A stretch of 32,000 nucleotides of DNA from Vibrio vulnificus CMCP6 (GCF_000039765.1 NC_004460.2:1500001-1532000), one strand, 5' to 3'; positions 1,582 through 31,284 are shown, counted from the stretch's first letter. Made by a program: numbers and translations. Notes: a model not told the origin generated them from the sequence alone.

Positions 1582-4500
1582 ATGATCCAAATTGTCATAG
1601 ACGGTAAATACCGTATCGTTGAGGCGGGGCAAACCGTTCTGCAAGCCGCCAAAGTGTGTGGGGTTGAGATTCCGTCTCTGTGTGGCATGAATCGTTCTGG
1701 TGAGAAGATTCCATGCGATTTGTGTGTTGTTGAGGTCGAAAGTGGCGGCACCCGCCGTGCTTGTGAGCTTGAAGTCTACAACGGCCTAACGGTAAACACG
1801 CAATCCGAAGCGCTGTCTGCGCATCGTAAACAGGCGCTCAACCGCATCATGAGTGACCACTACGCCGACTGCGAAGCGCCGTGCAAAACGGCGTGCCCTG
1901 CGGGCGTGGACATTCAATCCTATCTTTACCATATTGCGCAAAACGACCATCAAAAAGCGATTGAAGTGATCAAACGTACGCTGCCGATGCCTTTGTCAAT
2001 TGGCCGCGTTTGTCCTGCGTTTTGCGAATCCGAATGTCGCCGCTCGCTGGTGGATGATGCGATTGCTATCCGCCAACTGAAACGCCACGCTGCGGACGCT
2101 GATCTTGCTGCGCAAGAAGCCTACACACCCGAGAAAAAAGCCGACAAAAACAAACGTATTGCGATTGTCGGCAGTGGCCCTGGTGGTTTAACTGCGGGCT
2201 ATTACCTCACCAATGAAGGTTATCAGGTGGATGTGTTTGAAGCGATGCCACAAGCGGGTGGTTGGCTGCGTTATGGCATTCCCGAGTATCGTCTACCGAA
2301 GAGCATTCTCGATAAAGAGATCGCGTTGATGTGTCGCAACGGTATGGCGATTCATACTGATAAAAAACTGGGTCGAGACATCAGTTTGTCGCAGTTAAGC
2401 CAAGACTATGATGCGGTGTGTTTGGCAGTGGGTGCCTCAAAAGCGGTGGCGATGGATTACCCGGGTAGCGATCTTGATGGTTGTTATTTAGGGGTGGATT
2501 ATCTGAAAGATTTCGTCACCGAGCAGCGTTTCACCACAGGCAAAAAAGTGGCGGTGATCGGTGGGGGTAACACGGCGATCGACTGCGCGCGGACGGCAGT
2601 GAGAACGGGGGCGGACACCACGTTGATCTATCGTCGTACTCGCGATGAAATGCCCGCGGAAGATTACGAAATCGAAGAAGCAGAACATGAAGGCGTCAAG
2701 TTTCACTTCCTGACCAATCCTGCGCAGAACATCGCCGACGGAGATGGGCGAGTGTGCTCAGTGAAGCTGGAAAAAATGGCGTTGGGTGCGCCCGATGCCT
2801 CTGGTCGCCGCCGACCTGAAGCGACGGGTGAGTATTTCACCGAAGCCTTTGATACCGTGATTGCCGCAGTTTCTCAACAAGCCGATTTGAGCTTTATGCA
2901 AGGGGAAGCGTTAACGCTGCCTCTGACTCGTTGGAACACCGCTGATGCAAATCCAGAAACCATGCACAGTGGCACCGGCAATATCTTCAGTATCGGTGAT
3001 TTTCGCCGTGGCCCAGCCACTGCAGTTGAAGCGGTCGCGGATGGGCGCATCGCTGCGCAGGCCATTGACCGTTTCTTCGATGGTGACATGGAAAATATTC
3101 CCCTTAAGCCCTTCAATTCTCGTAAAGAGCAGAAGTTGAAACAGGTCGACCCGCTTCATTTTTCTCACCTGCAAAAAGTGGCGCGCACCATCATGCCTGA
3201 GCTGACCTCTCAGCAGCGCGAGCAAAGCTTTGAAGAAGTCGAGTTAGGCTTTGATAACGCCGAAGCGATGGCGGAAGCGGCGCGCTGTTTAGAATGTGGT
3301 TGCCAAGTCAACACGTCGTGTGACCTGCGCGATTACGCCACTGAGTATGGCGCGGAACAGCACTTCCACTATTCGGTGAACATCAAAAGCCATGATGAGT
3401 GGCAAGCATTGCGTCAAAACGATCCACGTCATAAATACCCGATCGACCACAGTTCTGAGTTTATTGTCTTTGATGCGAACCGCTGTATTAGCTGTGGTCA
3501 GTGCATTCAAGCTTGCCGTGAACAGTCAGTGCAAGGTGTATTGAGTTTCATGAACCTTGAAAAAGGTCGCCCGGTGGTGCGTCCGGATTGCCGTCCGAAC
3601 TTTGGTGGTCAGGGAGTGAGGATGGGTGACTCACGCTGCGTGCAATGTGGTGCCTGTGTGCAAGCGTGCCCTGTGGGGGCGATGACCGATGCGCGCGATC
3701 GCTCGCAAGGCCGCGAAACGCCTTTGAAGAAAGTGGACACCATTTGTACCTACTGCGGGGTCGGTTGTAAGTTGACCATGCATGTTGACGAAGCGGCCAA
3801 CCGAATTCGCTATGTCGAAGGGGCACACTCGCCGGTCAACGAAGGCATGCTGTGTGTCAAAGGGCGCTATGGTTTCGATTTTGTCGCCAGTGAAGAGCGG
3901 CTCACTACGCCGTTGATCCGTAAAGATGGTTGGTTGCAGCCAGCCAGTTGGCAAGAAGCCATCAGCTTAATTGCGGATAAGTTCAGCACCATCAAGCAAG
4001 ATTTCGGTGGCCGCGCATTGGCAGGATTCTCATCGGCGAAAACCACCAATGAAGATAACTACGCCTTCCAGAAATTCATGCGTCGTGAACTGGGTACCAA
4101 CAACGTCGATCACTGTGCAAGGCTTTGCCACGCATCGACCGTCACGGGATTAGAGGCGTCGCTGGGCAGTGGTGCGATGACCAACGACATTCCAAGCATC
4201 AAGCACTCGGATGTCATCTTCATCATTGGTTCGGATACCTCGGCGGCGCATCCGGTGATTGCGTCTCACATCAAACAAGCGGTTCGACATCATGGCGCGC
4301 GTTTGATTGTAGCGGACCCCAAACGCATCGGCATGGCGGATCACGCTGAGCTCTATTTGGCGCATCGCCCCGGCACGGATGTGATGTTGATTAATGGCGT
4401 GATGCAGCAAATCATCAAGAATGGCTGGTATGACATGGAGTACATCGAAGAACGTGTCGATGGCTTTGATACCATGCTGCAAGAGGTGATGTCGCCGGCC

Positions 4501-5781
4501 TATTCTCTCGACAAAGTCGAATTGGTGACGGGCGTAAAAGCCAACGACATTTTTGCCATGGCCCGGATGATCGGTACCGCGAAGCGCACCGCCGTCTACT
4601 ACTCAATGGGCATCACCCAGCACACCACGGGGCATGACAACGTTCGCTCTATCGCCAATCTTCAATTACTGTGTGGCAACATTGGTATCGAGGGTGGGGG
4701 TATCAACCCATTGCGCGGGCAGTCGAACGTGCAGGGCGCGTGCGATATGGGCGCGTTGCCTAATAACTACCCGGGCTATCAAAAAGTGTATAACCCATTG
4801 GTGCGCGAGAAATTTGTCATTGAATGGGATGCACCCAATCTCTCTGCGGAGCCGGGATTGACCCTAACCGAAATCATCGATGGGGCGTGCCGCCGTGATG
4901 TACGAGCGCTTTATGTGATGGGCGAAAACCCCGTATTGAGCGATCCCAATCAGGCGCATGTGATTGAGGGATTGGAGGCGCTGGATTTCTTGGTGGTGCA
5001 AGACATCTTCCTCACGGAAACCGCGCAATACGCCGATGTGGTCTTGCCTTCTTGCTCGTTTGCTGAAAAATCGGGTCACTTTACCAATACGGAGCGCCGT
5101 GTTCAGCGTATTTATCCTGCGGTGAACCCTCCCGGTGAAGCAAAAGAAGATTGGCGAATCATCCAAGAGATCGCCAATGCGATGGGTAGCGATTGGCACT
5201 ATCGTTCGGTGGCGGACATCACCAACGAAATCACCCGCGTGACGCCACAATACGCAGGGCTGAAATGGGACAACATCACCCGCGAAGGCGTGCAGTGGCC
5301 GAGCAACAAAAACAACCCTGCAGGCACGCGAATCATGCACCAAACGCAGTTTACTCGTGGCAAAGGCCAGATGGAGGCGATCCCGTTTCGCTATGCCGCA
5401 GAACTGCCTGATGAAGAGTACCCACTGGTGCTTACCACAGGGCGTGTTCTTGAGCAGTTCCACACCGGTACCATGACGCGCAAAACGCAGGGCTTGAACA
5501 ATCTTGCGGGGCCACGAGCGATGATCAGCGTGCAAGATGCCGAGGCGCTCGGCATTGGCAATGGCGACATGCTGAAAGTCTCAACCCGTCGTGGTGAAAT
5601 TGAAATCGCGGCGTTTGTCACTAAGCGTATGCAAGCGGGCGTGGTGTTCATCCCGTTCCACTTTGTTGAGTCGCCAGTGAATCGACTCACCACCACGGCG
5701 ACCGATCCTCATGCGAAGATCCCTGAGTTCAAAGTGGCGGCGGTACGCGTGGAGAAACTGCACACTGCGCTGGTGGAGTAA
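1582..5781 (+). CDS. Fused formate dehydrogenase: N-terminal 2Fe-2S domain + GltD-like (glutamate synthase small-subunit type) Fe-S/FAD/NAD(P)H module + 4Fe-4S ferredoxin domains + molybdopterin (FdhF/FdhA-type) catalytic domain
   Basis: Single 1399-aa ORF with AAGGGG RBS about 7 nt upstream of the ATG. Domains read from the translation, in order: 2Fe-2S (CGMNRSGEKIPCDLC); GltD-like Cys clusters (CEAPCKTACPAG, CPAFCESECRR); two Rossmann GxGxxG motifs (IVGSGPGGLTAG, VIGGGNTAIDCA); 4Fe-4S motifs (CISCGQCIQAC, CVQCGACVQACP); the MopB N-terminal cluster (CTYCGVGCKL); the active-site segment HCARLCHAST, with Cys where E. coli FdhH has Sec; and a C-terminal molybdopterin-binding barrel (LVLTTGRVLEQFHTG...FIPFHF). 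Confidence 0.9.
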   Translation: MIQIVIDGKYRIVEAGQTVLQAAKVCGVEIPSLCGMNRSGEKIPCDLCVVEVESGGTRRACELEVYNGLTVNTQSEALSAHRKQALNRIMSDHYADCEAPCKTACPAGVDIQSYLYHIAQNDHQKAIEVIKRTLPMPLSIGRVCPAFCESECRRSLVDDAIAIRQLKRHAADADLAAQEAYTPEKKADKNKRIAIVGSGPGGLTAGYYLTNEGYQVDVFEAMPQAGGWLRYGIPEYRLPKSILDKEIALMCRNGMAIHTDKKLGRDISLSQLSQDYDAVCLAVGASKAVAMDYPGSDLDGCYLGVDYLKDFVTEQRFTTGKKVAVIGGGNTAIDCARTAVRTGADTTLIYRRTRDEMPAEDYEIEEAEHEGVKFHFLTNPAQNIADGDGRVCSVKLEKMALGAPDASGRRRPEATGEYFTEAFDTVIAAVSQQADLSFMQGEALTLPLTRWNTADANPETMHSGTGNIFSIGDFRRGPATAVEAVADGRIAAQAIDRFFDGDMENIPLKPFNSRKEQKLKQVDPLHFSHLQKVARTIMPELTSQQREQSFEEVELGFDNAEAMAEAARCLECGCQVNTSCDLRDYATEYGAEQHFHYSVNIKSHDEWQALRQNDPRHKYPIDHSSEFIVFDANRCISCGQCIQACREQSVQGVLSFMNLEKGRPVVRPDCRPNFGGQGVRMGDSRCVQCGACVQACPVGAMTDARDRSQGRETPLKKVDTICTYCGVGCKLTMHVDEAANRIRYVEGAHSPVNEGMLCVKGRYGFDFVASEERLTTPLIRKDGWLQPASWQEAISLIADKFSTIKQDFGGRALAGFSSAKTTNEDNYAFQKFMRRELGTNNVDHCARLCHASTVTGLEASLGSGAMTNDIPSIKHSDVIFIIGSDTSAAHPVIASHIKQAVRHHGARLIVADPKRIGMADHAELYLAHRPGTDVMLINGVMQQIIKNGWYDMEYIEERVDGFDTMLQEVMSPAYSLDKVELVTGVKANDIFAMARMIGTAKRTAVYYSMGITQHTTGHDNVRSIANLQLLCGNIGIEGGGINPLRGQSNVQGACDMGALPNNYPGYQKVYNPLVREKFVIEWDAPNLSAEPGLTLTEIIDGACRRDVRALYVMGENPVLSDPNQAHVIEGLEALDFLVVQDIFLTETAQYADVVLPSCSFAEKSGHFTNTERRVQRIYPAVNPPGEAKEDWRIIQEIANAMGSDWHYRSVADITNEITRVTPQYAGLKWDNITREGVQWPSNKNNPAGTRIMHQTQFTRGKGQMEAIPFRYAAELPDEEYPLVLTTGRVLEQFHTGTMTRKTQGLNNLAGPRAMISVQDAEALGIGNGDMLKVSTRRGEIEIAAFVTKRMQAGVVFIPFHFVESPVNRLTTTATDPHAKIPEFKVAAVRVEKLHTALVE

Positions 5782-9755: not shown

Positions 9756-10589
9756 TTAAGAAGTGGCAAAATGGCTCTTAATAAACGCTTTAATCAGTTT
9801 AATGAAATCCGCTTCGGCCAGTTTTGCACAGGCGAGGGTTTGAGCGTGTGAGAGAGTAACGTCGCTGAGCCCTTCAGCCATGTTGGTGATGGCGCACAAG
9901 GCCAACACAGGGAGGCCGCAGTGAGCGGCTGAAATGACCTCAGGAACAACCGACATGCCCACCACATCACCACCGATGATTTGCATCATGCGAATTTCCG
10001 CGGCGGTTTCAAAATTTGGTCCAGTGTATGAGACAAAGACCCCTTGATTGAGATGAATGCCCTCGGCCTCGGCGACAGTCAGTGCTTCGCTGCGCAGTGA
10101 TTTATCGTAGGCATTGGCAAGGCTGAAAAATCTTGGCCCGTAGGCGTCGTCGTTGGGGCCAGTCATCGGGGATTCTGGCATGGTGTTGATGTGATCGTTA
10201 AAGACCACCAAGGAACCCACATCGATGCGTTCAGGGCGGAGTGAGCCCGCGGCATTGGTGACCAGAAGAAATTCACAGCCTAAGCGCTTAAAGGTGCGCA
10301 CAGGGTTGGTCATCACTTTCATGGTTTGATGTTCGTAGTAATGGCCTCGGCCTTTCATGCAGATGACATCGATACCGAACAGTTTGCCCAGAACCAACTC
10401 GCCGCTGTGCCCCTCAACCGTGCTAACCGGAAAACCCTCCAGTTCTTGATACGGTATAACAATTTTGTCATCGAGTTCATCAGCAATCACGCCAAGGCCA
10501 GAGCCGAGAATAAACGCGACTTTAGGTTGGTAATTGGGTTTGTAGCTGTAAATGGTTTCAAGCGCTTGGTTGACTGGATCAAATGTCAT
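9756..10589 (-). CDS. Purine nucleoside phosphorylase, trimeric PNP/MTAP family (XapA/PunA-type, 277 aa)
   Basis: Motifs of the trimeric PNP family are present: FILGSGLG (phosphate loop), LLVTNAAGSL and GGDVVGMSVVPEV. Length and the divergent LysR neighbour resemble the E. coli xapA/xapR arrangement. That resemblance is a similarity judgement, not a verified orthology. Confidence 0.9.
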   Translation of the reverse strand: MTFDPVNQALETIYSYKPNYQPKVAFILGSGLGVIADELDDKIVIPYQELEGFPVSTVEGHSGELVLGKLFGIDVICMKGRGHYYEHQTMKVMTNPVRTFKRLGCEFLLVTNAAGSLRPERIDVGSLVVFNDHINTMPESPMTGPNDDAYGPRFFSLANAYDKSLRSEALTVAEAEGIHLNQGVFVSYTGPNFETAAEIRMMQIIGGDVVGMSVVPEVISAAHCGLPVLALCAITNMAEGLSDVTLSHAQTLACAKLAEADFIKLIKAFIKSHFATS

Positions 10590-16963: not shown

Positions 16964-17806
16964 ATGATGCGGTTGTTGCTGATTTTATTATTGTTTTCTA
17001 GCCAGAGTTTTGCACTTGTTCTGCCCGTCGTGGTTGAAGAGAAGGTGCTGAAAGATTACCAAGCTTTCGTCAATGATCGAGACCCGCTTACGATAGACGA
17101 TTTTACTGGCCCCAAAGCGCGGCGCAGCACGGTAGAAATTGTGTTGCTTCAACAAGCGTTTATGTTGGGTGGGGTGCCCGTCACATTAGAGTTTCATACC
17201 GCCCCGGTGGCTGAACGTATTCGTCGTATGTCGATGCTGCCCGATTATGCCATGGCAGCGAACACCATTTGGGATTCCGCAGTGGGTGGGGATGGCGATC
17301 GTTTATGGGTCAGTGATGCGGTGATTCGCCAAGGGGAGTTTGAAGCGGGCCTGTATACCGTTAGCACCCGCGAGGATCTGCTTAATGAGCAGCAGCCAAT
17401 TCATATTGATCAGCTCTCTGCCGTCAGTAGTTCACAATGGGTGAGCGATTGGAACACTTTACAAGCCTTGCCGCTGAGTAACTTACTCAATGTGGCCGAT
17501 TGGGGCAATATGGTTGATATGGTGGGCCGCCACCGAGTCGATTTCCTGCTGGCGCCATTTCAGGTGTCTGATGATCTCTCGTTTACCACCCGAGGTTTTC
17601 AGTTTTTCCCTATTCCGAAAGTGAAAATTGGCTTAACCGGTTCGCGCCATTTCATTCTCTCCCGACAATTCCCTGAAAGCGAAAAACTGGCTCAAGCGCT
17701 CAATCAAGGCATCGCGATCCTTAGACAAAAAGGGACCATTGAGCGGGCGTTGATCGAATGCGGCTTTATCAACACCAAAGTCTCGAGCTGGAGCAAAATT
17801 AACTGA
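16964..17806 (+). CDS. Periplasmic protein, possibly an orphan type-2 solute-binding-fold protein
   Basis: Signal peptide MMRLLLILLLFSSQSFA/LV. Size and alternating pattern are reminiscent of the orphan family-3 substrate-binding-like proteins common in Vibrio. The functional assignment is weak. Confidence 0.55.
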   Translation: MMRLLLILLLFSSQSFALVLPVVVEEKVLKDYQAFVNDRDPLTIDDFTGPKARRSTVEIVLLQQAFMLGGVPVTLEFHTAPVAERIRRMSMLPDYAMAANTIWDSAVGGDGDRLWVSDAVIRQGEFEAGLYTVSTREDLLNEQQPIHIDQLSAVSSSQWVSDWNTLQALPLSNLLNVADWGNMVDMVGRHRVDFLLAPFQVSDDLSFTTRGFQFFPIPKVKIGLTGSRHFILSRQFPESEKLAQALNQGIAILRQKGTIERALIECGFINTKVSSWSKIN

Positions 17807-17978: not shown

Positions 17979-18731
17979 ATGGAGCTGTTCTCCCTATTTG
18001 ATATCAATAATACGCTTGTGAATATTCCGATTGGTGATGGCTATGCGATGAGCTGGATTGAAGCCATTGGGACCATTTTTGGTTTGCTTTGCATTTGGTT
18101 TGCCAGCCAAGAAAAAACCATCAACTATCTATTTGGTTTGATTAACGTGACGCTATTTGCGGTGATCTTCTTCCAAATTCAATTATACGGATTGCTTTTG
18201 CTACAGCTGTTTTTCTTTTGTGCTAACGTTTATGGCTGGTATGCATGGACAAGACCGAATGCCGAAGGGGATTTGCTGGAAGTGCGCTGGCTGAGCCAAA
18301 AGAAAATGGTGATCACTGCGGGCCTCTGCGTGTGTGCGATTGCGTTATTGACCGTGTACATCGACCCATTTTTCTTCGCATTGGCAAATATCGCAGTGGA
18401 CACCATGAATGTGTTCGGCGCTGGGCTTGCTGAGCCAGTATTGGAGCCCGACGCTTTCCCATTCTGGGATTCGACCATGACGGTATTGTCCATCGTGGCG
18501 CAAATCCTCATGACCAGAAAATATGTTGAAAACTGGGTGCTTTGGGTGGTGATCAACATCATTAGTGTGGGCATCTATGCCATGCAAGGTGTGTATGCGA
18601 TGTCACTGCAGTACGCGATCCTGATGTTCATTGCTGCGAATGGCACGCGTGAATGGGCTCGTACGGCGAAGCGCAACCAAGCATCGACGCAGCAGAAGTC
18701 AGAAAAATCGGCCGATGAGGCAGTCGCATGA
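17979..18731 (+). CDS. pnuC: PnuC-family nicotinamide riboside (nucleoside-type vitamin) transporter
   Basis: 250 aa, 7-8 TM. PnuC-like N-terminus SWIEAIGTIFGLLCIWFASQEKTINYLFGLINVTLFAVIFF and the YGWYAW motif. AAAGGA RBS. Confidence 0.85.
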   Translation: MELFSLFDINNTLVNIPIGDGYAMSWIEAIGTIFGLLCIWFASQEKTINYLFGLINVTLFAVIFFQIQLYGLLLLQLFFFCANVYGWYAWTRPNAEGDLLEVRWLSQKKMVITAGLCVCAIALLTVYIDPFFFALANIAVDTMNVFGAGLAEPVLEPDAFPFWDSTMTVLSIVAQILMTRKYVENWVLWVVINIISVGIYAMQGVYAMSLQYAILMFIAANGTREWARTAKRNQASTQQKSEKSADEAVA

Positions 18732-19456
18732 GTAAACAACCTCATCTGTGTGTTGATGAAACGCAAGTTGCAGAGCGAGTGATCGTGTGTGGCGAGCCGG
18801 ATCGCGCTAACCGAATTGCGGCGTTACTGGAAAACGCCGAACTGGTTGCAGAGAACCGCGAATACCGCCTTTTTAACGGTGAGTTTCAAGGTAAAGCCAT
18901 CACCGTTTGCAGTACGGGTATTGGTGCTCCATCAATGATTATTGCCGTTGAGGAGCTCAAGCAATGCGGCGCGAAATACATCATTCGTGTTGGTTCGGCA
19001 GGGGCGATGCAACCGAACATCGCACTGGGTGAGTTGATCGTAGCGGAAGGGGCGGTGCGCGATGAAGGGGGCTCAAAAGCCTACATTGATGCGGCTTATC
19101 CTGCTTATGCCAGTTTTAGCTTGCTCAAAGGGTTGGATGGCTATTTGCAAACGCAAGCGGTGCCCTACCATATGGGCGTCGTGCGTTCTCACGACAGCTT
19201 CTATACCGATGATGAAGAAACTTTGTGCCAATACTGGAACAAAAAAGGCATCTTGGGAGCCGATATGGAAACTTCGGCGTTGTTTACGGTGGGTCGTTTA
19301 CGTGGATTGCACGTGGCTTCTGTGCTGAATAATGTCGTGCGCTATCAGCAAGATGTTAAAGAAGGGGTAAGCCAATACGTGAATGATGATGATGCCATGA
19401 TGGCGGGCGAAAAACGTGCGTCATTGGCGGCTTTAACCGCGCTTTCCTGCCAATAG
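18728..19456 (+). CDS. Nucleoside phosphorylase, NP-I hexameric family (Udp/DeoD-like, 242 aa)
   Basis: Family motifs: CGEPDRANRIA, CSTGIGAPSMIIAVEEL, IIRVGSAGA and GADMETSALF. The start ATG overlaps the pnuC stop (ATGA at 18728-18731), indicating translational coupling. Confidence 0.85.
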   Translation: MSKQPHLCVDETQVAERVIVCGEPDRANRIAALLENAELVAENREYRLFNGEFQGKAITVCSTGIGAPSMIIAVEELKQCGAKYIIRVGSAGAMQPNIALGELIVAEGAVRDEGGSKAYIDAAYPAYASFSLLKGLDGYLQTQAVPYHMGVVRSHDSFYTDDEETLCQYWNKKGILGADMETSALFTVGRLRGLHVASVLNNVVRYQQDVKEGVSQYVNDDDAMMAGEKRASLAALTALSCQ

Positions 19457-21549: not shown

Positions 21550-22443
21550 ATGGACAATCGACTGCGTTATCTCTCAGCACTGCGTTTTTTCGAATCGGCC
21601 TCGCGGCTAAAAAGTTACAGCAAAGCGGCCGAAGAGCTGCATGTTACTCAAGCCGCCATTAGCCAAAAATTACGCCAGCTTGAAGATCGTTTAGGGTGCA
21701 AATTGTTTGTTCGTCGTGGGCGAGAAATGCATCTCACCGATAAGGGTCAGATCCTGCAAAAACATGTGAATGATGGCTTCAAAAACATTGTTACAGGGCT
21801 CAATCGAATTCAAAACGAACCGCTTGAAGGCGTGTTGAATGTTAGTGCCCCTCGCTCGTTTTCGACTCGCTGGTTAATGCCTAGATTGTGGAAATTCACC
21901 ATGGAATTCCCTCATGTACCTATTCGTGTGCAAAACGCTAAGGGCATTGATATCCGCCACACAGAAACGGATGTGCTTATTTGGCAAGGTGATGACACCG
22001 TTGAGCATCTTGAGCTTGAGCAAGAGACGTTATTTGAAGAGGCCATTTTTCCCTACTGCTCACCACAGTTAGCAGAATCCATGAAGTTTACTGAGCCAGA
22101 ACAACTGCTACGCTGTTGGCTGATTGACTTTAACTCTACCTCCTTCAACTGGGATCAATGGTTTCACTGTGCCAATGTTCAGGCCAAGCGTGAAGGGATC
22201 CAATGGATGGAAGTCAGTACGTTCGATATGGCGATTAATGCCGTTGTTGAGGGTCATGGTGCCTGCTTGGCGACAGAGAGCATTACCGCCGATTTCGTCG
22301 AGCGCGGCTTGTTGGTCAAGCCATTTAACATCGGGCTCAAACCTGGCGTTCGCATTTCCGTGATCAGTGATCCTTCGTCATCACGTGTGTTAAGGATTAA
22401 CGCTTTCAAGGAATGGTTACAAAGAGAACTTCATTTTCAGTAA
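21550..22443 (+). CDS. LysR-family transcriptional regulator (GcvA/AmpR-like subgroup)
   Basis: HTH LSALRFFESASRLKSYSKAAEELHVTQAAISQKLRQLEDRLGCKLFVRRGREMHLTDKG. Full-length effector domain. A 10-bp palindrome ATAGCGCTAT (21478-21487) lies about 65 bp upstream. Confidence 0.85.
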   Translation: MDNRLRYLSALRFFESASRLKSYSKAAEELHVTQAAISQKLRQLEDRLGCKLFVRRGREMHLTDKGQILQKHVNDGFKNIVTGLNRIQNEPLEGVLNVSAPRSFSTRWLMPRLWKFTMEFPHVPIRVQNAKGIDIRHTETDVLIWQGDDTVEHLELEQETLFEEAIFPYCSPQLAESMKFTEPEQLLRCWLIDFNSTSFNWDQWFHCANVQAKREGIQWMEVSTFDMAINAVVEGHGACLATESITADFVERGLLVKPFNIGLKPGVRISVISDPSSSRVLRINAFKEWLQRELHFQ

Positions 22444-22518
22444 CCGATGCTTGTTGCTTTCACCTAGCTCCCTGGTTATGCGCAAGTTGATAATGTCTAG
22501 GCTCATAGTGAGCCAAAT

Positions 22519-22552
22519 AAACCAAAGCGAGCCGAGGCTCGCTTTGGTTTGT
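22519..22552. terminator. Bidirectional intrinsic terminator between the LysR gene (+) and the EamA gene (-)
   Basis: ACCAAAGCGAGC (22521-22532) pairs with GCTCGCTTTGGT (22537-22548), a 12-bp perfect stem with loop CGAG. A-rich 5' flank and T-rich 3' flank. Confidence 0.8.
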
Positions 22553-22586: not shown

Positions 22587-23492
22587 TCAGTTATCCCGAG
22601 TCGAGGTGACAATCACACTAAACAGGATGAGTGCGCCACCGAGCAATTGCAGCGCGGTGAGGGATTCTTGTAACCACACCATCGCGAAAATGGCGCCGAA
22701 GAGCGGTTCACTGCCCATGAGGAGTGAAACGCGAGTCGGTGAGGTTCTGCGCACGGCATAGTTTTGCACGTAGAACGCAAACAGCGTACAAAACAGCACG
22801 AGGTATGCCACGGTGAGCCAAAATTCGAGTGAGACGGGCAGTACAATCTCTGCGGCTGGTACATACACCAATACACCGACGATTGCACAACTGGCCACCA
22901 CGAAAGATTGCAGAGAGGTGAGCGTTGAGGTGGTGATGGCTTTGCCTTCGGTGAAACGTTTGGTCATAGTGACCATTAAGGCACGCAGCAGTGCTGCAGT
23001 TAAAATAAAGTAGTCACCAGTGTTGAGCGAAAGCTCGATGCCTTGCTCGCTGGTGAGCAAGAGTACGCCGATGACACTGCACACAGTGAGAGCCAATAAA
23101 GTATTGCTGATGCGCTTTTTATTGATCACCAGCTCGGCAAACGCCGTTAGGATAACGGTGAGGCTGATCAAAAATGCGGCATTGGATGCAGAGGTTTGTG
23201 AAACCCCAAACACTTCGCAGAAAAAAATCGCCGAGAGGATAAAGCCGGTAGGTATGGCAATCTTCCAGTCCTTATTGAGTCCTTGGCGAAAGTCTCGAAT
23301 CACGACAGGTAGCATACACAGGAAAGTGATCGAGAAACGAATCGAGATAAAGAGCAAAACGCTGGTATACACTAGAGCGCTTTTGGTGAGCCCGTAACTG
23401 GTTCCCCAAAATACGGCCACTAACAGCAGCAGTGTTTCAGTGAGGGGAAACTTAAAACTCCCTTTTTTTAACGAACTCGTCGCTGTAGTCAT
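22587..23492 (-). CDS. EamA/DMT-superfamily transporter (RhtA-like exporter), third gene of the operon
   Basis: ORF 22587..23693 trimmed to the ATG at 23492 (MTTATSSLKKGSFKFPLTETLLLLVAVFWGTSYG). The upstream part of the ORF overlaps the dioxygenase gene out of frame and is Ser/Pro/Arg-rich junk. GGAG RBS. About 10 TM with two EamA repeats. The start is 1 nt after the upstream stop (23494). Confidence 0.85.
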   Translation of the reverse strand: MTTATSSLKKGSFKFPLTETLLLLVAVFWGTSYGLTKSALVYTSVLLFISIRFSITFLCMLPVVIRDFRQGLNKDWKIAIPTGFILSAIFFCEVFGVSQTSASNAAFLISLTVILTAFAELVINKKRISNTLLALTVCSVIGVLLLTSEQGIELSLNTGDYFILTAALLRALMVTMTKRFTEGKAITTSTLTSLQSFVVASCAIVGVLVYVPAAEIVLPVSLEFWLTVAYLVLFCTLFAFYVQNYAVRRTSPTRVSLLMGSEPLFGAIFAMVWLQESLTALQLLGGALILFSVIVTSTRDN

Positions 23493-23493
23493 G

Positions 23494-24246
23494 TTATTTC
23501 TCCATTTTTGTAAAAGCGATGACGAGTACATCCCTAGAGGCTGAGGTCTCACGGCTCGCGGGGGTAATGGTCGAGACTTCGTGCATCGTAGCGGCATCAT
23601 CCGCCATGACGATGTCGAAGGTTTTATCGAGCGTGATGCGCTCGAGCTCATTTTTATTAGCATCGGTGAGGCGGGTTTCGCCACCGGATACATTGATCTT
23701 GTTGATCATCATCGAGGCGATATAAGTCACGCCATCACGATGCAACCCTTCAGGCGTTGGTTCGCCCGCTTCGGCTTCCGTTGCGGTAATGCGATAAGGG
23801 TGCAAGCGGATATTCCAGTTTTGCGGTTCGCCTTCGACGTCGTCATAGATTTCGCTCATCATATTGAGCAACTTTTCTAAAACAGGCGAGGTGACGAAGC
23901 GATCCGTCAGCGGTTCAAAGTGTCTTTCCACGCCTCCGTTGAGCGTGTTGATGTAAGAGGGCTGAACATACGGTTCATGCGGCATCATCACGATCTCTTT
24001 GCTGCGTGCGAGCTTGGTAAATTGACCATAGCGGCGGTAGCGATACGTCCCTCCATCCGCCATATAGCGATCGCGTTCTAGTTGGTTCCAGCAGTTTTTG
24101 AATCGAATCACTTCGCCAACATGAGTGCTGAGCAATAACGTCATTTGTCGTCCATTGATAAAGACGTATTTGTACTTTTTCAGCTGTTGCGAAATGGGAA
24201 GAACGCTCTGCTTGGTTTTATGAGTCGTGCTTTCTGTCATTGTCAT
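23494..24246 (-). CDS. Fe(II)/2-oxoglutarate dioxygenase of the PF10014 (2OG-Fe_Oxy_2, IDO/HilA-like free amino-acid hydroxylase) type
   Basis: 250 aa with GGAGG RBS 5 nt upstream of the ATG. Family-typical GGTYRYRRYGQF motif. HxD...H facial triad candidates are GLHRDGV and ATMHEVS. Family recognition is from memory of IDO-type sequences and was not searched. Confidence 0.8.
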   Translation of the reverse strand: MTMTESTTHKTKQSVLPISQQLKKYKYVFINGRQMTLLLSTHVGEVIRFKNCWNQLERDRYMADGGTYRYRRYGQFTKLARSKEIVMMPHEPYVQPSYINTLNGGVERHFEPLTDRFVTSPVLEKLLNMMSEIYDDVEGEPQNWNIRLHPYRITATEAEAGEPTPEGLHRDGVTYIASMMINKINVSGGETRLTDANKNELERITLDKTFDIVMADDAATMHEVSTITPASRETSASRDVLVIAFTKMEK

Positions 24247-24257
24247 CTGCGCCTCCG

Positions 24258-25472
24258 TTACGCGACTTGATGCTGTTTATCAGATGTCGGTTCAAGTTGA
24301 ACCGAGCGCATACTGCGGGCATGCGCCACGTTTATCTCCCAATTGTCGCGATCACGTAGGTATCGTGCATTATCTGCAACAATACTGGTGGCGATTGCAT
24401 TACCTCGGGAAAGTTTAAAGAGGACACTGCCAGAGACATGCTCGGCAGTGTGAGCGATGAACGCATAGCTGGCATTTTGCAACAGGCTACCGAAGCGACC
24501 TTCGACCGCTTCTTGAGTCCACGTTTCGTTGTGCCATGCTTTGGCTTTGAGAACATCGGTAGGTAAAGTGGCCGTTTCCAGCAACTTATAAGCCTTCATC
24601 AAGAGCATAGCAGCGGGTGCTTCGCGCACCTCTAACACTTTTTCGTCTTGATCGAGATGGTCGAACCCTACATAACGACCTATCTCATACGCGCCAACGT
24701 GGTTGTTAATAAACGCTATTAACTCGAGTAGGGTTATCGGTTTGTCATTTAAGGTAACCGGATAACCTTGTTTGAAACCGATCTTGATGCTGTCGCCTTC
24801 AAGATGGTGCTCTGGTTGCCAACGCGACCAGGTAAAAAGCGAATCGGCGAGGGTGAAGTTTTCCGGATCGTCCAAGATGCCGGATTCAAACTCGCGACAC
24901 CATAAATTGGAATCGCCACTGACATTACGAGATTTAAAGCCAACCAAACCGGAGTGAAATAGCGTCTGAGCTTTTTCTTCGCGGCTGATGGCGGAATATT
25001 CATACGGTGAACCGTAGAACCCTTGGTAGCCTGAACGTTCAATCGCGCCATTGAGACGGCGTAAGCTGTTTTGCGACTGATTCGCGGTGTGGATGATGGC
25101 GTCACAACTGAGGATCTGTGCCAGCTCGACCGCTTTTTTAACAATGATTGGTCGAGAGAGTGAGGAACTGACCGGATAGTCACCTAGGTAAAGCGCTTGT
25201 GCTTGTATGGCAGAAAAGAGGCTGTGTTCAACAAATTCCTGTTTTGCATCGAGGATGTTTAAATCGAAGCCGTAATGATCGGTGATGAGCTTGAGTTTGG
25301 ATTCTTCGATGTCATCGCCAAGATCGATGGCCACCGCCGTGACTTTTGCGCGGCTGTTTTTAAGAATCTCGAGCAAGTAAGAGCTATCTAAGCCGCCGCT
25401 AAAGAGCGTCAACACATGTTTGGCTTGGCTCGCGACGTTTTGTACATCCTCAATACTTCTGATTTTCTTCAT
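24258..25472 (-). CDS. Argininosuccinate-synthase-like PP-loop ATP pyrophosphatase (divergent ArgG paralog)
   Basis: PP-loop LFSGGLDSS at the N-terminus. ArgG-like blocks: ALYLGDYPVSSSLSRPIIVKKAVELA (cf. ALYEGxYLLGTxLARPLIAKxxVEIA) and GDSNLWCREFESGILDDPEN (cf. DENLWHISYEGGxLEDP). The ArgG block HGxTGKGNDQVRF is replaced by HTANQSQNSLRRL. Confidence 0.8.
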   Translation of the reverse strand: MKKIRSIEDVQNVASQAKHVLTLFSGGLDSSYLLEILKNSRAKVTAVAIDLGDDIEESKLKLITDHYGFDLNILDAKQEFVEHSLFSAIQAQALYLGDYPVSSSLSRPIIVKKAVELAQILSCDAIIHTANQSQNSLRRLNGAIERSGYQGFYGSPYEYSAISREEKAQTLFHSGLVGFKSRNVSGDSNLWCREFESGILDDPENFTLADSLFTWSRWQPEHHLEGDSIKIGFKQGYPVTLNDKPITLLELIAFINNHVGAYEIGRYVGFDHLDQDEKVLEVREAPAAMLLMKAYKLLETATLPTDVLKAKAWHNETWTQEAVEGRFGSLLQNASYAFIAHTAEHVSGSVLFKLSRGNAIATSIVADNARYLRDRDNWEINVAHARSMRSVQLEPTSDKQHQVA

Positions 25473-25501
25473 CTCTCTGTCCTTGATGTTGTCTGACTAA
25501 T

Positions 25502-25511
25502 GTCAATTGAC
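25502..25511. promoter_or_regulatory. Perfect 10-bp palindrome GTCAATTGAC in the divergent promoter region (candidate LysR operator)
   Basis: Lies in the 104-bp gap between the ArgG-like start (25472) and the LysR start (25577). Flanked by imperfect ACTAAT/ATTAGT arms. Confidence 0.3.
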
Positions 25512-25576
25512 TTAATTAGTATCTATAAGTAACTTCAACGGAACAATACAGTGAAAATGCAAAGGATAATTGCGCC

Positions 25577-26491
25577 ATGGACACGAATAGATTAATTCCA
25601 CTGCTTTCTGAGATGGCCATTTTCGTGAATGTCGTCGAATCTGGCAGTTTTTCGAAAACCGCGCAAAAGCTCGGTGTGTCGCCGTCTTCGGTCAGTCGCT
25701 CGATAACGCGCTTGGAAAATGTGCTGGAAAAGAAACTGCTTGAGCGCACGACGCGACAAATGCGGTTAAGTGCGACGGGGCAAGAAGTCTATAGCCTGTG
25801 CAGTGATATGCTCAATGCGGCCAAAATGGCGGTTTCCGCAGCGCAAACGGACAAAAGTGAAGCGTCTGGCTCACTTCGCATTGCAGCGCCGAAAGCGTTA
25901 TCTCGCCAAGTATTGATGCCGCTGGTGCTCGATTTCATTGCTGAACACCCCAAAGTGGCGCTGCAACTGAAAGTCGCGGATCACTATATCGACCCGATAG
26001 GCGATGAGGTGGACGTAATCATCCAAATCACTGACAAACCAACCGAAGGTTTGGTGGCTCGTAGCTTAGGTCGTTGCCGTTTGGTGCTGTGTGCAAGCCC
26101 AGACTATTTGCAGCAGCAAGGCACGCCGAATCATCCAGATGATTTAGTGGGGCACAACTGTTTGTGCTTGGGAGAAAATCCGCGTGATAGGGTGTGGGAT
26201 TTTACCATTGGCAGCCGAAAAATCTCGGTGAACGTGAAGGGCTCATTTGCGGTCAATCACAGTGAAATTCGTCGTGAAGCGGTGCTGAGAGGATTGGGTA
26301 TTTCGGTGTTTCCTGAGTTTGCGATTCGTTCTTATATTGAGTCGGGAGCGTTGACCGAGTTACTCAGTGACTGGCACCTCGGCGGTAATTATCAAGGGCA
26401 GATTTTGGCGCAATATGCGCAGTCAAAATATGTGCCGCAGCAGATCAAAACCTTTATTGAATACCTCCAACAACGCATGGTGCATGCATAG
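25577..26491 (+). CDS. LysR-family transcriptional regulator, divergent from the ligase/dioxygenase/exporter operon
   Basis: HTH EMAIFVNVVESGSFSKTAQKLGVSPSSVSRSITRLENVLEKKLLERTTRQMRLSATG. Full LysR substrate-binding domain. Confidence 0.9.
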   Translation: MDTNRLIPLLSEMAIFVNVVESGSFSKTAQKLGVSPSSVSRSITRLENVLEKKLLERTTRQMRLSATGQEVYSLCSDMLNAAKMAVSAAQTDKSEASGSLRIAAPKALSRQVLMPLVLDFIAEHPKVALQLKVADHYIDPIGDEVDVIIQITDKPTEGLVARSLGRCRLVLCASPDYLQQQGTPNHPDDLVGHNCLCLGENPRDRVWDFTIGSRKISVNVKGSFAVNHSEIRREAVLRGLGISVFPEFAIRSYIESGALTELLSDWHLGGNYQGQILAQYAQSKYVPQQIKTFIEYLQQRMVHA

Positions 26492-26527: not shown

Positions 26528-26567
26528 AAAAACCCCGTAGAGCGTTCGCTCCACGGGGTTTATTTTC
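26528..26567. terminator. Bidirectional intrinsic terminator between the LysR gene (+) and the DAACS transporter gene (-)
   Basis: CCCCGTAGAGCG (26533-26544) pairs with CGCTCCACGGGG (26547-26558) with one mismatch. CAAAAA lies upstream and TTTATTTT downstream. Confidence 0.8.
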
Positions 26568-26604: not shown

Positions 26605-27909
26605 TTAAGCGTCGGCACGTTTTAGGTGTACTTCTTCTTCTTTTTCACCTGCTTTTGGATCGGCGAAGCGTTCAAGATCTAAGGCACCTTCTGATTTCGC
26701 CACAATCACTGACACACACGCGTCACCGGTGATGTTTACGGCAGTGCGGATCATATCCAGTAGACGGTCGACACCCATGATCAGCGCGATACCTTCCAGT
26801 GGCAGACCCACTTGGTTGAGTACCATCGCCAGCATGACCAGACCAACGCCCGGAACACCAGCAGTACCGATAGACGCCAATGTTGCGGTGAGGATCACCA
26901 TCACATAGTCACCCATGCTGAGGTCGATGTTGAATGCTTGAGCGATAAACGCGGTCGCCACACCTTGCATGATGGCCGTACCATCCATGTTGACTGTTGC
27001 GCCCAACGGAACCGTGAACGAGGCGATTTTGTTGTCTACGCCTAGGCGGTTTTTAACCGTTTCCATGGTGGCTGGAATGGTGGCATTCGAGGAGGCCGTT
27101 GAGAAGGCAAACATAATGGCATCTTCCATTTTCTTCAAGAAAGTCAATGGACTTAGGCCAGTGAAGCCTTTTAGCATCAAGCTGTAAGTGACCAAACCAT
27201 GGATGAGCAGCGTTGCCGTCAACACTAGGAAGTATTCACCTAGATTGATGATTGCGCCCAAACCTAGGCCAGTAAACAGTTTCGCCATCAAGAAGAACAC
27301 GCCGTAAGGGGCGAGGTTCATCAGTAGCGCAACCAGCTTCATGATCACTTCGTTAAGATCAGAGAAGATCGCCGCAATGCGTTCGCCCGGTTTACCAGCT
27401 GCACTGATGGCAATACCAAACAGCAGTGCGAAGACGATCACTTGAAGCGTTTTGCCTTCGGCCATCGCACTGATTGGGTTGGTCGGGAACATATCGATGA
27501 TCACTTGACCCAATGACGGTGCTTCTGCCGATTTGAACGAGCTTGCTGCGGTGAGATCTGCACCTGCTCCAGGTTGGAATACCGTGCCCATGGTCAGAGC
27601 GAGCGTGATAGCAACGGCGGTGGTGGTGATATAAAACGCCAGGGTTTTACCACCCATGCGACCTAGGGTCGAGATATCTTTAAGTGAGCTGGTACCACAA
27701 ACAAGCGAAACAAAAATCAGTGGTACAACAAGCATTTTTAAGCTGGCAATAAAGATTTTACCGCCGACTTCAAAAAGTCCATTTACGATGTATGCGTCAA
27801 CAAATCCATTGTCAGCAAATAGCGCGCGAATCGCGAATCCTGTCAAGATACCCGCAACCATGCCAAGAATTACACGGCCGGTTAGCGACATCGGTTTCTT
27901 GGTATTCAT
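26605..27909 (-). CDS. Dicarboxylate/amino acid:cation symporter (DAACS family, GltP-like)
   Basis: 434 aa, polytopic. Family signatures: SSNATIPATM (HP1 region), GATVNMDGTA (NMDGT motif) and DRLLDMIRTAVNITGD (the DxxRT segment). Confidence 0.9.
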   Translation of the reverse strand: MNTKKPMSLTGRVILGMVAGILTGFAIRALFADNGFVDAYIVNGLFEVGGKIFIASLKMLVVPLIFVSLVCGTSSLKDISTLGRMGGKTLAFYITTTAVAITLALTMGTVFQPGAGADLTAASSFKSAEAPSLGQVIIDMFPTNPISAMAEGKTLQVIVFALLFGIAISAAGKPGERIAAIFSDLNEVIMKLVALLMNLAPYGVFFLMAKLFTGLGLGAIINLGEYFLVLTATLLIHGLVTYSLMLKGFTGLSPLTFLKKMEDAIMFAFSTASSNATIPATMETVKNRLGVDNKIASFTVPLGATVNMDGTAIMQGVATAFIAQAFNIDLSMGDYVMVILTATLASIGTAGVPGVGLVMLAMVLNQVGLPLEGIALIMGVDRLLDMIRTAVNITGDACVSVIVAKSEGALDLERFADPKAGEKEEEVHLKRADA

Positions 27910-30435: not shown

Positions 30436-31284
30436 TTAGAATCTCCGATCGACTGAGAAGAACATGCTCTGGCGGTCACCAAAACCAAACTCACCGAGCA
30501 GATACCAACTCTCATTGATTTGATACTGCATGCCCACAATGGGGTTCCATGGGGTTTGCAAGTGTTGCTGAACTTCGAAACGAGCATCACTGGGCAGCAG
30601 TGAGGTTAAGGATGAGGGCAAGCCCAGATCGGAAAGCGAACCTTTGAGTGTTTGCTCAACATCTTGGTACATGGCGCCAGCCCAAATACGCAGCGGTGTC
30701 CCGTGGCGATTGAAATCATAACCGACACGAGGAGAGACAACGATAGCGTCAATGGTACCGTCGATGACGGTCAAACGGCTTTGCGTGAAACTGGCGTCCA
30801 CCAACGCAAACCAGTTTTCATATCCCCCGACTAACACAGCGCCAAAGCCAGTGGTGTAGCCATCCAGATCCAAGCGAAAGTCTTGGATTTTATGGGTGAT
30901 AAACGGTCTGTTGGGGTTAAAGCCTGCGGTTAAGGTGACGTCTGTGGTCGAATAGCCATCTAGCTTACCCACCAAACCATACAAGTTAAGAAAGGGAAAC
31001 AGCCAAACGTCAGCCCGTAATGTCAGCACTTCGGTATATTGGCGTCCGGGTTCTGCATCCAAACCGATATCGAGATAGTTGAAGTCCAACCCTTGCAGAT
31101 CGATGGAATCGACATTAATACCTTGCTCCATCGTCATGTAACTCAAGTTAAAACCGATCGGTTTTGGCAAGGTGTAACCAAGCGCTTCTGCGTCTTCTTT
31201 CCAGATAGGCAGTGAAAAGGAGTCTGCTACGGTTGGGGTGGAGCAAGCAGCAAACAGTAAGGAGAGCAGAACGGCTTTTTTCAT
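30436..31284 (-). CDS. Outer-membrane beta-barrel protein (282 aa), possible lipoprotein, first gene of the envelope operon
   Basis: Signal peptide MKKAVLLSLLFAAC/S (weak lipobox, or SPase I cleavage at TVA/DS). Amphipathic beta-strand periodicity. C-terminal OMP signature FFSVDRRF. The stop is 3 nt before the next gene's start. Confidence 0.65.
   Translation of the reverse strand: MKKAVLLSLLFAACSTPTVADSFSLPIWKEDAEALGYTLPKPIGFNLSYMTMEQGINVDSIDLQGLDFNYLDIGLDAEPGRQYTEVLTLRADVWLFPFLNLYGLVGKLDGYSTTDVTLTAGFNPNRPFITHKIQDFRLDLDGYTTGFGAVLVGGYENWFALVDASFTQSRLTVIDGTIDAIVVSPRVGYDFNRHGTPLRIWAGAMYQDVEQTLKGSLSDLGLPSSLTSLLPSDARFEVQQHLQTPWNPIVGMQYQINESWYLLGEFGFGDRQSMFFSVDRRF

Follow-up and report, generated by a model that had tools for sequence, protein, structure and literature searches.

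The 32,000-nucleotide (nt) window of Vibrio vulnificus CMCP6 analyzed here (GCF_000039765.1 NC_004460.2:1500001-1532000; the whole stretch is called the window) contained a four-gene cassette, in which an argininosuccinate synthase (ArgG)-related enzyme, an Fe(II)/2-oxoglutarate (2OG) dioxygenase of the PF10014 family, and an EamA-type transporter were encoded by one operon, with a divergent LysR-type regulator. With moderate confidence, we consider this cassette to be compact and horizontally mobile, and to encode the biosynthesis of a non-proteinogenic amino acid that carries a nitrile and is secreted; the best reading of its product is a secreted nitrile amino-acid antimetabolite. Gene 1 (24258-25472, minus strand) encoded a 404-amino-acid (aa) ArgG-related PP-loop enzyme that is predicted, by homology to the nitrile synthetase ArtA, to act as an ATP-dependent amide-to-nitrile synthetase; its sequence matched a V. 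vulnificus protein at 98% identity. Gene 2 (23494-24246, minus strand) encoded the dioxygenase of 250 aa, gene 3 (22587-23492, minus strand) encoded a 301-aa member of the EamA/drug-metabolite transporter (DMT) family, which is the predicted product exporter, and lysR (25577-26491, plus strand) encoded a regulator of 304 aa. The close packing of the three minus-strand genes noted in a preliminary description of this DNA was confirmed in the sequence. The 11-nt spacer between genes 1 and 2 (24247-24257, minus strand) read directly as TAA-CGGAGGCGCAG-ATG and contained GGAGG as the ribosome-binding site of gene 2, and a single nucleotide separated genes 2 and 3 (TAA-C-ATG). Gene 3 was taken to start at an internal ATG at 23492, as tblastn matches in other genomes began at the start of the 301-aa protein; an alternative open reading frame (ORF) of 368 aa overlapped gene 2.

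Gene 1 passed the Pfam cut-offs for Arginosuc_synth (83.7 bits) and Arginosuc_syn_C (98 bits), and its homologues are labelled "argininosuccinate synthase" in several source databases, which would agree with a functional, divergent argininosuccinate synthase whose clustering with the other genes is incidental. However, gene 1 fell below the cut-offs of all six argG equivalog models, with scores of 185.0 and 185.3 bits vs. cut-offs of 268-334 bits (268.2 for TIGR00032 and 334 for NF001770), whereas it reached 610.7 bits against NCBIfam NF038212 (argG_rel), covering model positions 1-380 of 381. NF038212, "argininosuccinate synthase-related protein," is a curated NCBIfam "exception" model with a cut-off of 425 bits, and it carried no assigned function in NCBIfam of June 2026. 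Furthermore, the aspartate-binding residues of ArgG were lost, no arg genes were present in the 32-kb window, the gene was strictly linked and sometimes fused to PF10014, and its structure resembled that of ArtA more closely than that of any ArgG. Gene 1 is almost certainly not argG. The canonical enzyme was rejected by the curated cut-offs together with the lost aspartate site, and a true argininosuccinate synthase in an incidental cluster is extremely improbable; the earlier view of gene 1 as a diverged ArgG paralogue rather than the housekeeping gene is upheld.

The closest characterized relative of gene 1 was ArtA. The best sequence match in the PDB was the pair 9LEH/9LEI (E = 9e-97, 44% identity), with true ArgG structures following from 1e-35. 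The structure model of gene 1 had a predicted local distance difference test (pLDDT) score of 90, and the same pair was the top match of the fold search, with template modeling (TM) scores of 0.88/0.94 and a root-mean-square deviation (rmsd) of 2.0-2.4 Å, vs. a TM score of ~0.80 and an rmsd of 4-5 Å for true ArgG structures. The entry title of 9LEH/9LEI is "nitrile synthetase ArtA" (released 2026-01-14). ArtA itself (9LEH residues 43-423) scored 526.8 bits on NF038212, which is above the 425-bit cut-off; therefore, ArtA and the gene 1 protein belong to one curated family. ArtA, also called NitB, functions in fungal auranthine biosynthesis, and was reported to perform only an ATP-dependent amide-to-nitrile dehydration on amino-acid side chains (PMC13060819, which cites Zeng et al., 2025, on an "argininosuccinate synthetase-like enzyme," and Kishimoto et al., 2025, on auranthine). 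Gene 1 shared with ArtA the PP-loop, nearly all active-site positions, and the loss of the ArgG aspartate site. On the other hand, ArtA is fungal and lies beside a nonribosomal peptide synthetase (NRPS), as seen in its 91%-identical homologue from Aspergillus lentulus, and lacks a PF10014, EamA, or LysR partner. Gene 1 also had a weak Pfam match to QueC (E = 7e-5). QueC and ToyM (7-cyano-7-deazaguanine synthase) are likewise PP-loop ATPases that make a nitrile via an adenylated intermediate, but they constitute a separate family with a different C-terminal domain, and QueC works on a deazapurine, where it uses ammonia to turn a carboxylate first into an amide and then into a nitrile (PMC13060819).

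The residues of the gene 1 protein were mapped onto T. thermophilus ArgG by an HMMER alignment, and were compared in a 45-sequence alignment of the window protein, T. thermophilus ArgG, 9LEH, 20 bacterial proteins of the trio type (encoded with PF10014 and EamA genes), 11 rhizobial proteins, and 11 fungal proteins. Citrulline-side and aspartate-side roles in this mapping are those that we presume from ArgG structures. The ATP pyrophosphatase motif SGGLDSS described earlier, the PP-loop, was confirmed by translation at residues 25-31 (25380-25400, minus strand) and was invariant in all clades compared. In the block HTANQSQNSLRRL (25053-25091, minus strand), which is the counterpart of ArgG HGATGKGNDQVRF, the ArgG residues T116, K118, and D121 were replaced by N131, S133, and S136, and N120 and R124 were kept as N135 and R139. 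A hand alignment of the HGxTGKGNDQVRF motif had given the same result, with N and R kept and K and D lost. We take T116, N120, and D121 of T. thermophilus ArgG to be its aspartate-binding residues. The ENRxVGxKSRxxYE block, which the preliminary description found unrecognizable, was aligned by HMMER to FDHLDQDEKVLEVRE (24621-24665, minus strand), the counterpart of ArgG VENRFVGMKSRGVYE; K265 was kept as K278, and E258, N259, and Y270 were replaced by D271, H272, and R283. A further change was S182 to E194. The citrulline-side residues Y84, S89, N120, R124, and S173 were retained as Y99, S104, N135, R139, and S185, which suggests that the substrate is an alpha-amino acid. The gene 1 protein thus appears to keep the machinery that binds an alpha-amino acid and adenylates a terminal C(=O)NH2 group, and to have lost the amine site.

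The three aspartate-site substitutions were common to the trio-type, rhizobial, and fungal groups, including ArtA. All but 4-5 of 39 ATP-site, substrate-site, and neighboring positions were identical across these groups, the exceptions being 132, 138, 271, 272, and the variable position 274, and gene 1 was identical to 9LEH at 34 of the 39 (differing at 132, 270, 271, 272, and 274). Position 132 was the only residue of the HTANQSQNSLRRL block that differed between the window protein (Q) and ArtA (L); most trio-type proteins shared the Q of the window protein, and fungi and most rhizobia had the L. Position 138 was R in trio-type proteins and ArtA, and P in most of the other fungal and rhizobial members. 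Position 271 was D or E in the bacterial clades, and position 272 was an invariant H in bacteria vs. P in fungi, including ArtA.

These substitutions bear on the ATP-dependent ligation, with formation of ureido, guanidino, or amidine groups, that was proposed at the outset. In such a scheme, gene 1 would remain a ligase: after adenylation of an oxygen in a ureido or amide group, it would join an amine or ammonia to the substrate, and the resulting guanidino, amidine, or ureido amino acid would be hydroxylated by the PF10014 enzyme and exported by EamA. The ArgG fold, the PP-loop ATP site, and the five retained citrulline-side residues, all of which gene 1 shares with ArgG (EC 6.3.4.5), are compatible with this scheme, and ammonia could in principle attack an adenylated amide, with an amidine as the product. 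However, the amine-positioning residues of ArgG were all replaced, matching ArtA, an enzyme of the same NCBIfam model that only dehydrates, and the cassette encoded no amine-donor enzyme or glutaminase domain. Because the aspartate-site residues were replaced identically in ArtA, the changes fit the elimination of AMP to a nitrile and not amine coupling. The O-adenylation of a C(=O)NH2 group is presumably a first step shared with ArgG, whereas the second step is predicted to be elimination to a nitrile, and both the aspartate site and an arg-operon context are missing. Gene 1 is probably not a ligase, and we regard the ligase scheme as a whole as unlikely.

Conservation of the cassette supported a joint function of its genes. 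A scan of one genome per species returned 308 stretches that encode a gene 1 relative, and counts out of 80 refer to the best 80 of these. Seventy-five of the 80 loci had the order ArgG-related, PF10014, and EamA on one strand, and 63 of these also had an orthologous divergent LysR. The recurrence of the whole arrangement at this frequency is far beyond chance. The loci were distributed among Gamma-, Beta-, and Alphaproteobacteria, a cyanobacterium, two Bacillota, a Sulfurospirillum (Campylobacterota), and a mussel symbiont, and spanned at least four bacterial phyla. When all ORFs lying no more than 4.5 kb from the trio were clustered for these 75 loci, LysR (63 loci) was the only recurrent partner gene; the next clusters comprised at most 11 loci and reflected lineage synteny. 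The co-conservation of the trio and its description as a self-contained, LysR-associated operon, both of which had been put forward from the sequence of the window, therefore hold. The trio was also carried on plasmids of Agrobacterium vitis, Rhizobium, Mesorhizobium, and Vibrio halioticoli, and in the rhizobial and Agrobacterium plasmids its order was permuted to EamA, ArgG-related, and PF10014. The rhizobial ArgG-related proteins were the closest bacterial relatives of ArtA (63-67% identity), with 66% for the protein of the permuted plasmid cassettes. Single-chain fusions with an N-terminal ArgG-related part and a C-terminal PF10014 part (P0060, P0191, P0195, and P0235) were found in Mesorhizobium, Bradyrhizobium, and metagenomes. 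The conserved order, the plasmid copies, and the fusions indicate that the ArgG-related, PF10014, and EamA genes are functionally coupled.

Five of the 80 loci lacked the full trio. Two had decayed, one without PF10014 (L026) and one with a truncated copy (L051), one was a 1.5-kb contig, and two were from Burkholderia/Trinickia. In the latter two (L055 5401-15170, Burkholderia paludis; L067 4043-14021, Trinickia sp.), a major facilitator superfamily (MFS) transporter gene and the ArgG-related gene occurred without PF10014, and were followed by genes for a fumarylacetoacetate (FAA)-hydrolase-like protein, an aldehyde dehydrogenase, a thiamine pyrophosphate (TPP)-dependent decarboxylase, a PhyH dioxygenase, and a 5-enolpyruvylshikimate-3-phosphate (EPSP)-synthase-like enzyme, with insertion sequence (IS) elements around them. 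These genes appear to form another small-molecule pathway, one in which the nitrile-synthetase family is also employed. A third context of the ArgG-related family, without an NRPS, was seen in Fusarium culmorum (L084 2497-11326), where the gene lay beside those for an HpcH/HpaI aldolase, an RraA-like protein, a class IV aminotransferase, and a 2-hydroxyacid dehydrogenase. Aspergillus tubingensis, A. neoniger, and A. vadensis encoded ArtA-family proteins of ~662 aa (P0209-P0213) with alanyl/threonyl-tRNA-synthetase editing-type domains (PF01411 and PF07973), which may hint at a link of a nitrile amino acid to tRNA mischarging or to self-protection. Among the plasmid copies, an AraC-type regulator replaced LysR in A. 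vitis (L083 6109-9986, plasmid AP023275.1), beside IS66 and conjugation genes, and the two enzyme genes overlapped by 4 nt in Rhizobium sp. NXC24 (L085 4830-7744).

Gene 2 matched PF10014 (2OG-Fe_Oxy_2) with 208 bits over profile positions 2-191 of 192 (cut-off 23.1). The assignment to this family on the basis of a YRYRRY motif and an HRD...H triad was borne out, with the triad intact on alignment. The YRYRRY motif was located by translation at residues 68-73 (24028-24045, minus strand), and in a 22-sequence alignment (A2) its R69 and R71 were invariant and R72 nearly so. The HxD...H iron triad (H169/D171/H222) and the C-terminal 2OG arginine R238 were invariant in the same alignment and aligned with 3PL0. 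The structure model (pLDDT 91.8) had a cupin/double-stranded beta-helix (DSBH) fold, and the top PDB folds were 3PL0 (TM score 0.83), HrmJ, 8W8H, IDO, BelL, and TqaL. PDB sequence matches scored 135 bits for 3PL0, 114.5 for 9DQP, 68.6 for 9DQ0, 68.2 for 8JMS, 43.9 for IDO, and 20 for TqaL, where 9DQP and 9DQ0 are HrmJ and 8JMS is BelL, as named by the fold search, and 3PL0 is uncharacterized. Judged by these matches, HrmJ and BelL are the closest characterized relatives of gene 2, and the isoleucine hydroxylase IDO is more distant; NCBIfam NF042428 (HilB) gave 37.1 bits, below its 350-bit cut-off. The contig with the gene for 9DQP ended at this gene, and its neighbors were polyketide synthase (PKS)/NRPS parts, a context that agrees with HrmJ but is uninformative. 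Two other proteins were considered as trio members and rejected. 3PL0 (Methylibium) was about equally distant (37-42%) from the best-matching trio dioxygenases and is therefore probably a sister lineage. AVI, the Thr/Leu 4-hydroxylase of Agrobacterium vitis, which would have supplied a measured activity for the trio, had primer-encoded termini (MQGNIS...LTFRRK) that differed from those of the plasmid trio protein (MLKKIAS...AFEKI).

HrmJ and BelL remove a hydrogen from C4 of L-6-nitronorleucine and form a cyclopropane that includes the nitro-bearing carbon, and the nitro group is installed beforehand by an upstream enzyme (PMC12006828). By analogy, the terminal electron-withdrawing group of this substrate parallels the nitrile that gene 1 would make: in the HrmI/HrmJ and BelK/BelL pairs of hormaomycin and belactosin biosynthesis, one enzyme adds a terminal electron-withdrawing group to a free L-amino acid and a PF10014 enzyme activates a nearby C-H. 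However, the group in these pairs is a nitro group derived from lysine by a heme-oxygenase-like diiron enzyme, the pairs lie in large Streptomyces NRPS clusters, and the identity of gene 2 to their dioxygenases was only ~25-35%. The cassette also resembled the IDO operon of Bacillus thuringiensis and the Hil operon of Pantoea ananatis, which join PF10014 to an RhtA/EamA-family exporter and lead to an exported amino-acid antimetabolite (PMC3684760); these are precedents for the clustering with exporters to which the preliminary description had appealed. In both operons the PF10014 enzyme acts on a free amino acid, and a LysR regulator is also present in Hil. Their partners, in contrast, are a short-chain dehydrogenase, a second dioxygenase (PF13640), or an ATP-grasp ligase, none of which is related to ArgG, and no IDO/Hil-type short-chain dehydrogenase (AR/HilC) or second dioxygenase (HilA) was found in the window or among the conserved neighbors.

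Gene 3 contained two stretches of PF00892 (EamA; 114.7 bits in Pfam), and two EamA repeats correspond to about 10 transmembrane helices. Its match to TIGR00950 ("carboxylate/amino acid/amine transporter") reached 77 bits, which is below the cut-off. The EamA gene followed the PF10014 gene in the same 75 loci.

The following pathway is proposed for the cassette. On the model of ArtA, the gene 1 enzyme would bind a free L-amino acid with a terminal carboxamide, the simplest candidate being L-glutamine, as in auranthine. ATP would adenylate the amide oxygen, as ArgG does with the ureido oxygen of citrulline, and as the site for an amine co-substrate is absent, AMP would be eliminated to give a nitrile, for example L-2-amino-4-cyanobutanoate, with the release of AMP and PPi. 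The PF10014 enzyme may then activate a C-H near the electron-withdrawing group and catalyze hydroxylation, desaturation, or ring closure. C4 hydroxylation would lead to a cyanohydrin that releases HCN, desaturation to a cyano-vinylglycine, and an HrmJ-like reaction to a cyanocyclopropane, and the two enzymatic steps could also run in reverse order. The EamA transporter would export the product and thereby also protect the producer, and the divergent LysR would control the operon from the shared 104-bp region. A more specific version of this proposal is possible but doubtful. It holds that the cassette is a previously unrecognized, broadly distributed way of making a free amino acid with a nitrile "warhead," occurring in >300 bacterial species as well as on plasmids, in which an ATP-dependent dehydratase would act on a proteinogenic amide amino acid, and the PF10014 enzyme would then make use of the electron-withdrawing nitrile, as HrmJ and BelL do of a nitro group, and perform non-hydroxylating chemistry (giving cyanocyclopropyl or cyano-vinylglycine-type products) or form a C4 cyanohydrin that breaks down to HCN and aspartate semialdehyde.

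Several points weigh against the nitrile pathway. Gene 1 was only 44% identical to ArtA, across kingdoms, and the substrate of the bacterial enzyme may differ from that of ArtA, as H272 (vs. the fungal P) and D/E271 adjoin the residue that holds the alpha-amino group of the substrate in ArgG. The substrate of ArtA itself could be either free glutamine or a bound intermediate, and no measured activity, substrate, or product of the bacterial members was found in the literature. If a nitrile derived from glutamine were hydroxylated at C4, the resulting cyanohydrin would be unstable, and thus a plain "hydroxylate and export" scheme is not obviously coherent. In addition, EamA/DMT proteins can be importers too, and small operons under LysR control are likewise characteristic of modules for catabolism or detoxification. 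The target of such a module would be an exogenous amino-acid analogue with an amide or nitrile group; EamA would import or expel it, LysR would sense it, and the two enzymes would modify it so that it is assimilated or inactivated. The divergent LysR and small operon form a classic substrate-induced layout, some DMT proteins do import, and the distribution was patchy and included plasmids, like that of many accessory catabolic traits. However, the ATP-costly dehydration of an amide to a more reactive nitrile does not follow a degradative logic, and the characterized relatives of both enzymes are biosynthetic. No co-occurring nitrilase, amidase, aminotransferase, or dehydrogenase was found, and no neighbor was conserved beyond lineage synteny. 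A catabolic or detoxification role is therefore quite improbable, and the biosynthesis of a secreted nitrile amino acid is the reading that we retain.

No paper on a bacterial cassette that joins the ArgG-related and PF10014 families was found in a full-text literature search, in line with the earlier statement that no characterized pathway is known to pair them. Both enzyme families, an ArgG-like nitrile synthetase (2025-26), and operons of PF10014 plus an exporter were already known. Nitriles are rare in natural products and are valued in drugs as covalent warheads, and to our knowledge the ATP-dependent enzymes that form them are few (QueC/ToyM, ArtA/NitB, CalN, and PesC). If the proposed pathway is correct, the ArgG-like nitrile synthetases extend beyond fungi and are central to a small, mobile cassette of bacteria from several phyla, with carriers that include marine symbionts, plasmids of rhizobia and Agrobacterium, and the pathogen lineage of the window. 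The product would then be a secreted amino-acid analogue, a new compound class for Vibrio and rhizosphere ecology, and the two enzymes would offer a biocatalytic way to turn a cheap amino acid into functionalized nitriles. Hundreds of "argininosuccinate synthase" genome annotations would need correction. The warhead version, if true, would define a new class of secreted bacterial antimetabolite, and its cyanohydrin variant a new cyanogenic pathway. As the unit consists of only four genes, the hypothesis is directly testable by heterologous expression.

The LysR protein contained an N-terminal HTH_1 domain (69.3 bits) and a LysR_substrate domain (132.6 bits) in Pfam, and its orthologue was divergent from the trio in 63 of the 80 loci. 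The control region between the operon and lysR comprised 104 bp (25473-25576) and was conserved in blocks across Vibrionaceae loci. The divergent LysR and the perfect palindrome that had been reported in this shared promoter region were both present, with the palindrome GTCAATTGAC at 25502-25511 as its single occurrence in the window. Beyond the window, the full palindrome was found only in 7 close Vibrio loci. The control-region counts are based on the 64 related loci that have a divergent LysR, and 27 of these retained the GTCAAT half of the palindrome. Read toward lysR, the palindrome forms TTGACT-N17-TAACTT, a plausible lysR promoter. A second dyad, GCAAAGGATAATTGC (GCAA-N7-TTGC; 25559-25573), was located 4 nt upstream of the lysR ATG and, besides the window, occupied the identical position in 24 of the 64 loci. 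This dyad is a candidate LysR-type operator and was more widely kept than the full palindrome that had been flagged earlier; as a conserved LysR operator, the palindrome was rejected owing to its partial conservation and the wider retention of the dyad beside the lysR ATG.

Two hairpins flanked the cassette. Hairpin 1 (22517-22552, both strands) had a 16-bp stem and a 4-nt loop, with folding energies of -26.1 kcal/mol (plus strand) and -25.1 kcal/mol (minus strand), and was situated between the end of the EamA gene (22587) and the end of a convergent LysR gene (22443). It is likely the operon terminator, and was missing from the terminator scan because its T-run is short. Hairpin 2 (26530-26561, both strands) consisted of 14 pairs followed by a T-run (-28.4 kcal/mol on the minus strand and -21.6 kcal/mol on the plus strand); it was a bidirectional terminator between lysR and a convergent SDF transporter gene, and the only one of the two hairpins that met the T-run rule. 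The earlier claim that strong bidirectional terminators bracket the module thus stood for the strength of both hairpins (-22 to -28 kcal/mol), but only hairpin 2 passed as a terminator under that rule. The second LysR-family gene (21550-22443, plus strand), which converges on the EamA gene across hairpin 1, had a counterpart downstream of the cassette in the nearest relative, Vibrio floridensis (L001), and none in more distant loci. The gene for a dicarboxylate/amino acid:cation symporter (DAACS)/GltP-like protein (26605-27909) had been suggested as a supplier of substrate. It adjoined the cassette only in L001, and was therefore rejected as a member of the unit. Base composition, which was checked as a sign of recent transfer, did not differ between the module and its flanks.

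Other features of the window included two ORFs of 280 and 282 aa (16964-17806, plus strand, and 30436-31284, minus strand) that had no Pfam match at E <= 1e-4. An ORF of 1399 aa (1582-5781, plus strand) fused a 2Fe-2S domain, a GltD-like Fer4_20/Pyr_redox_2 module, 4Fe-4S clusters, and a molybdopterin oxidoreductase, and represented an unusually long redox fusion. A gene for a PnuC-type nicotinamide mononucleotide (NMN) transporter overlapped a PNP_UDP_1 phosphorylase-family gene by 4 nt (17979-19456, plus strand), and a second PNP_UDP_1 gene was found beside LysR-type regulators (9756-10589, minus strand).

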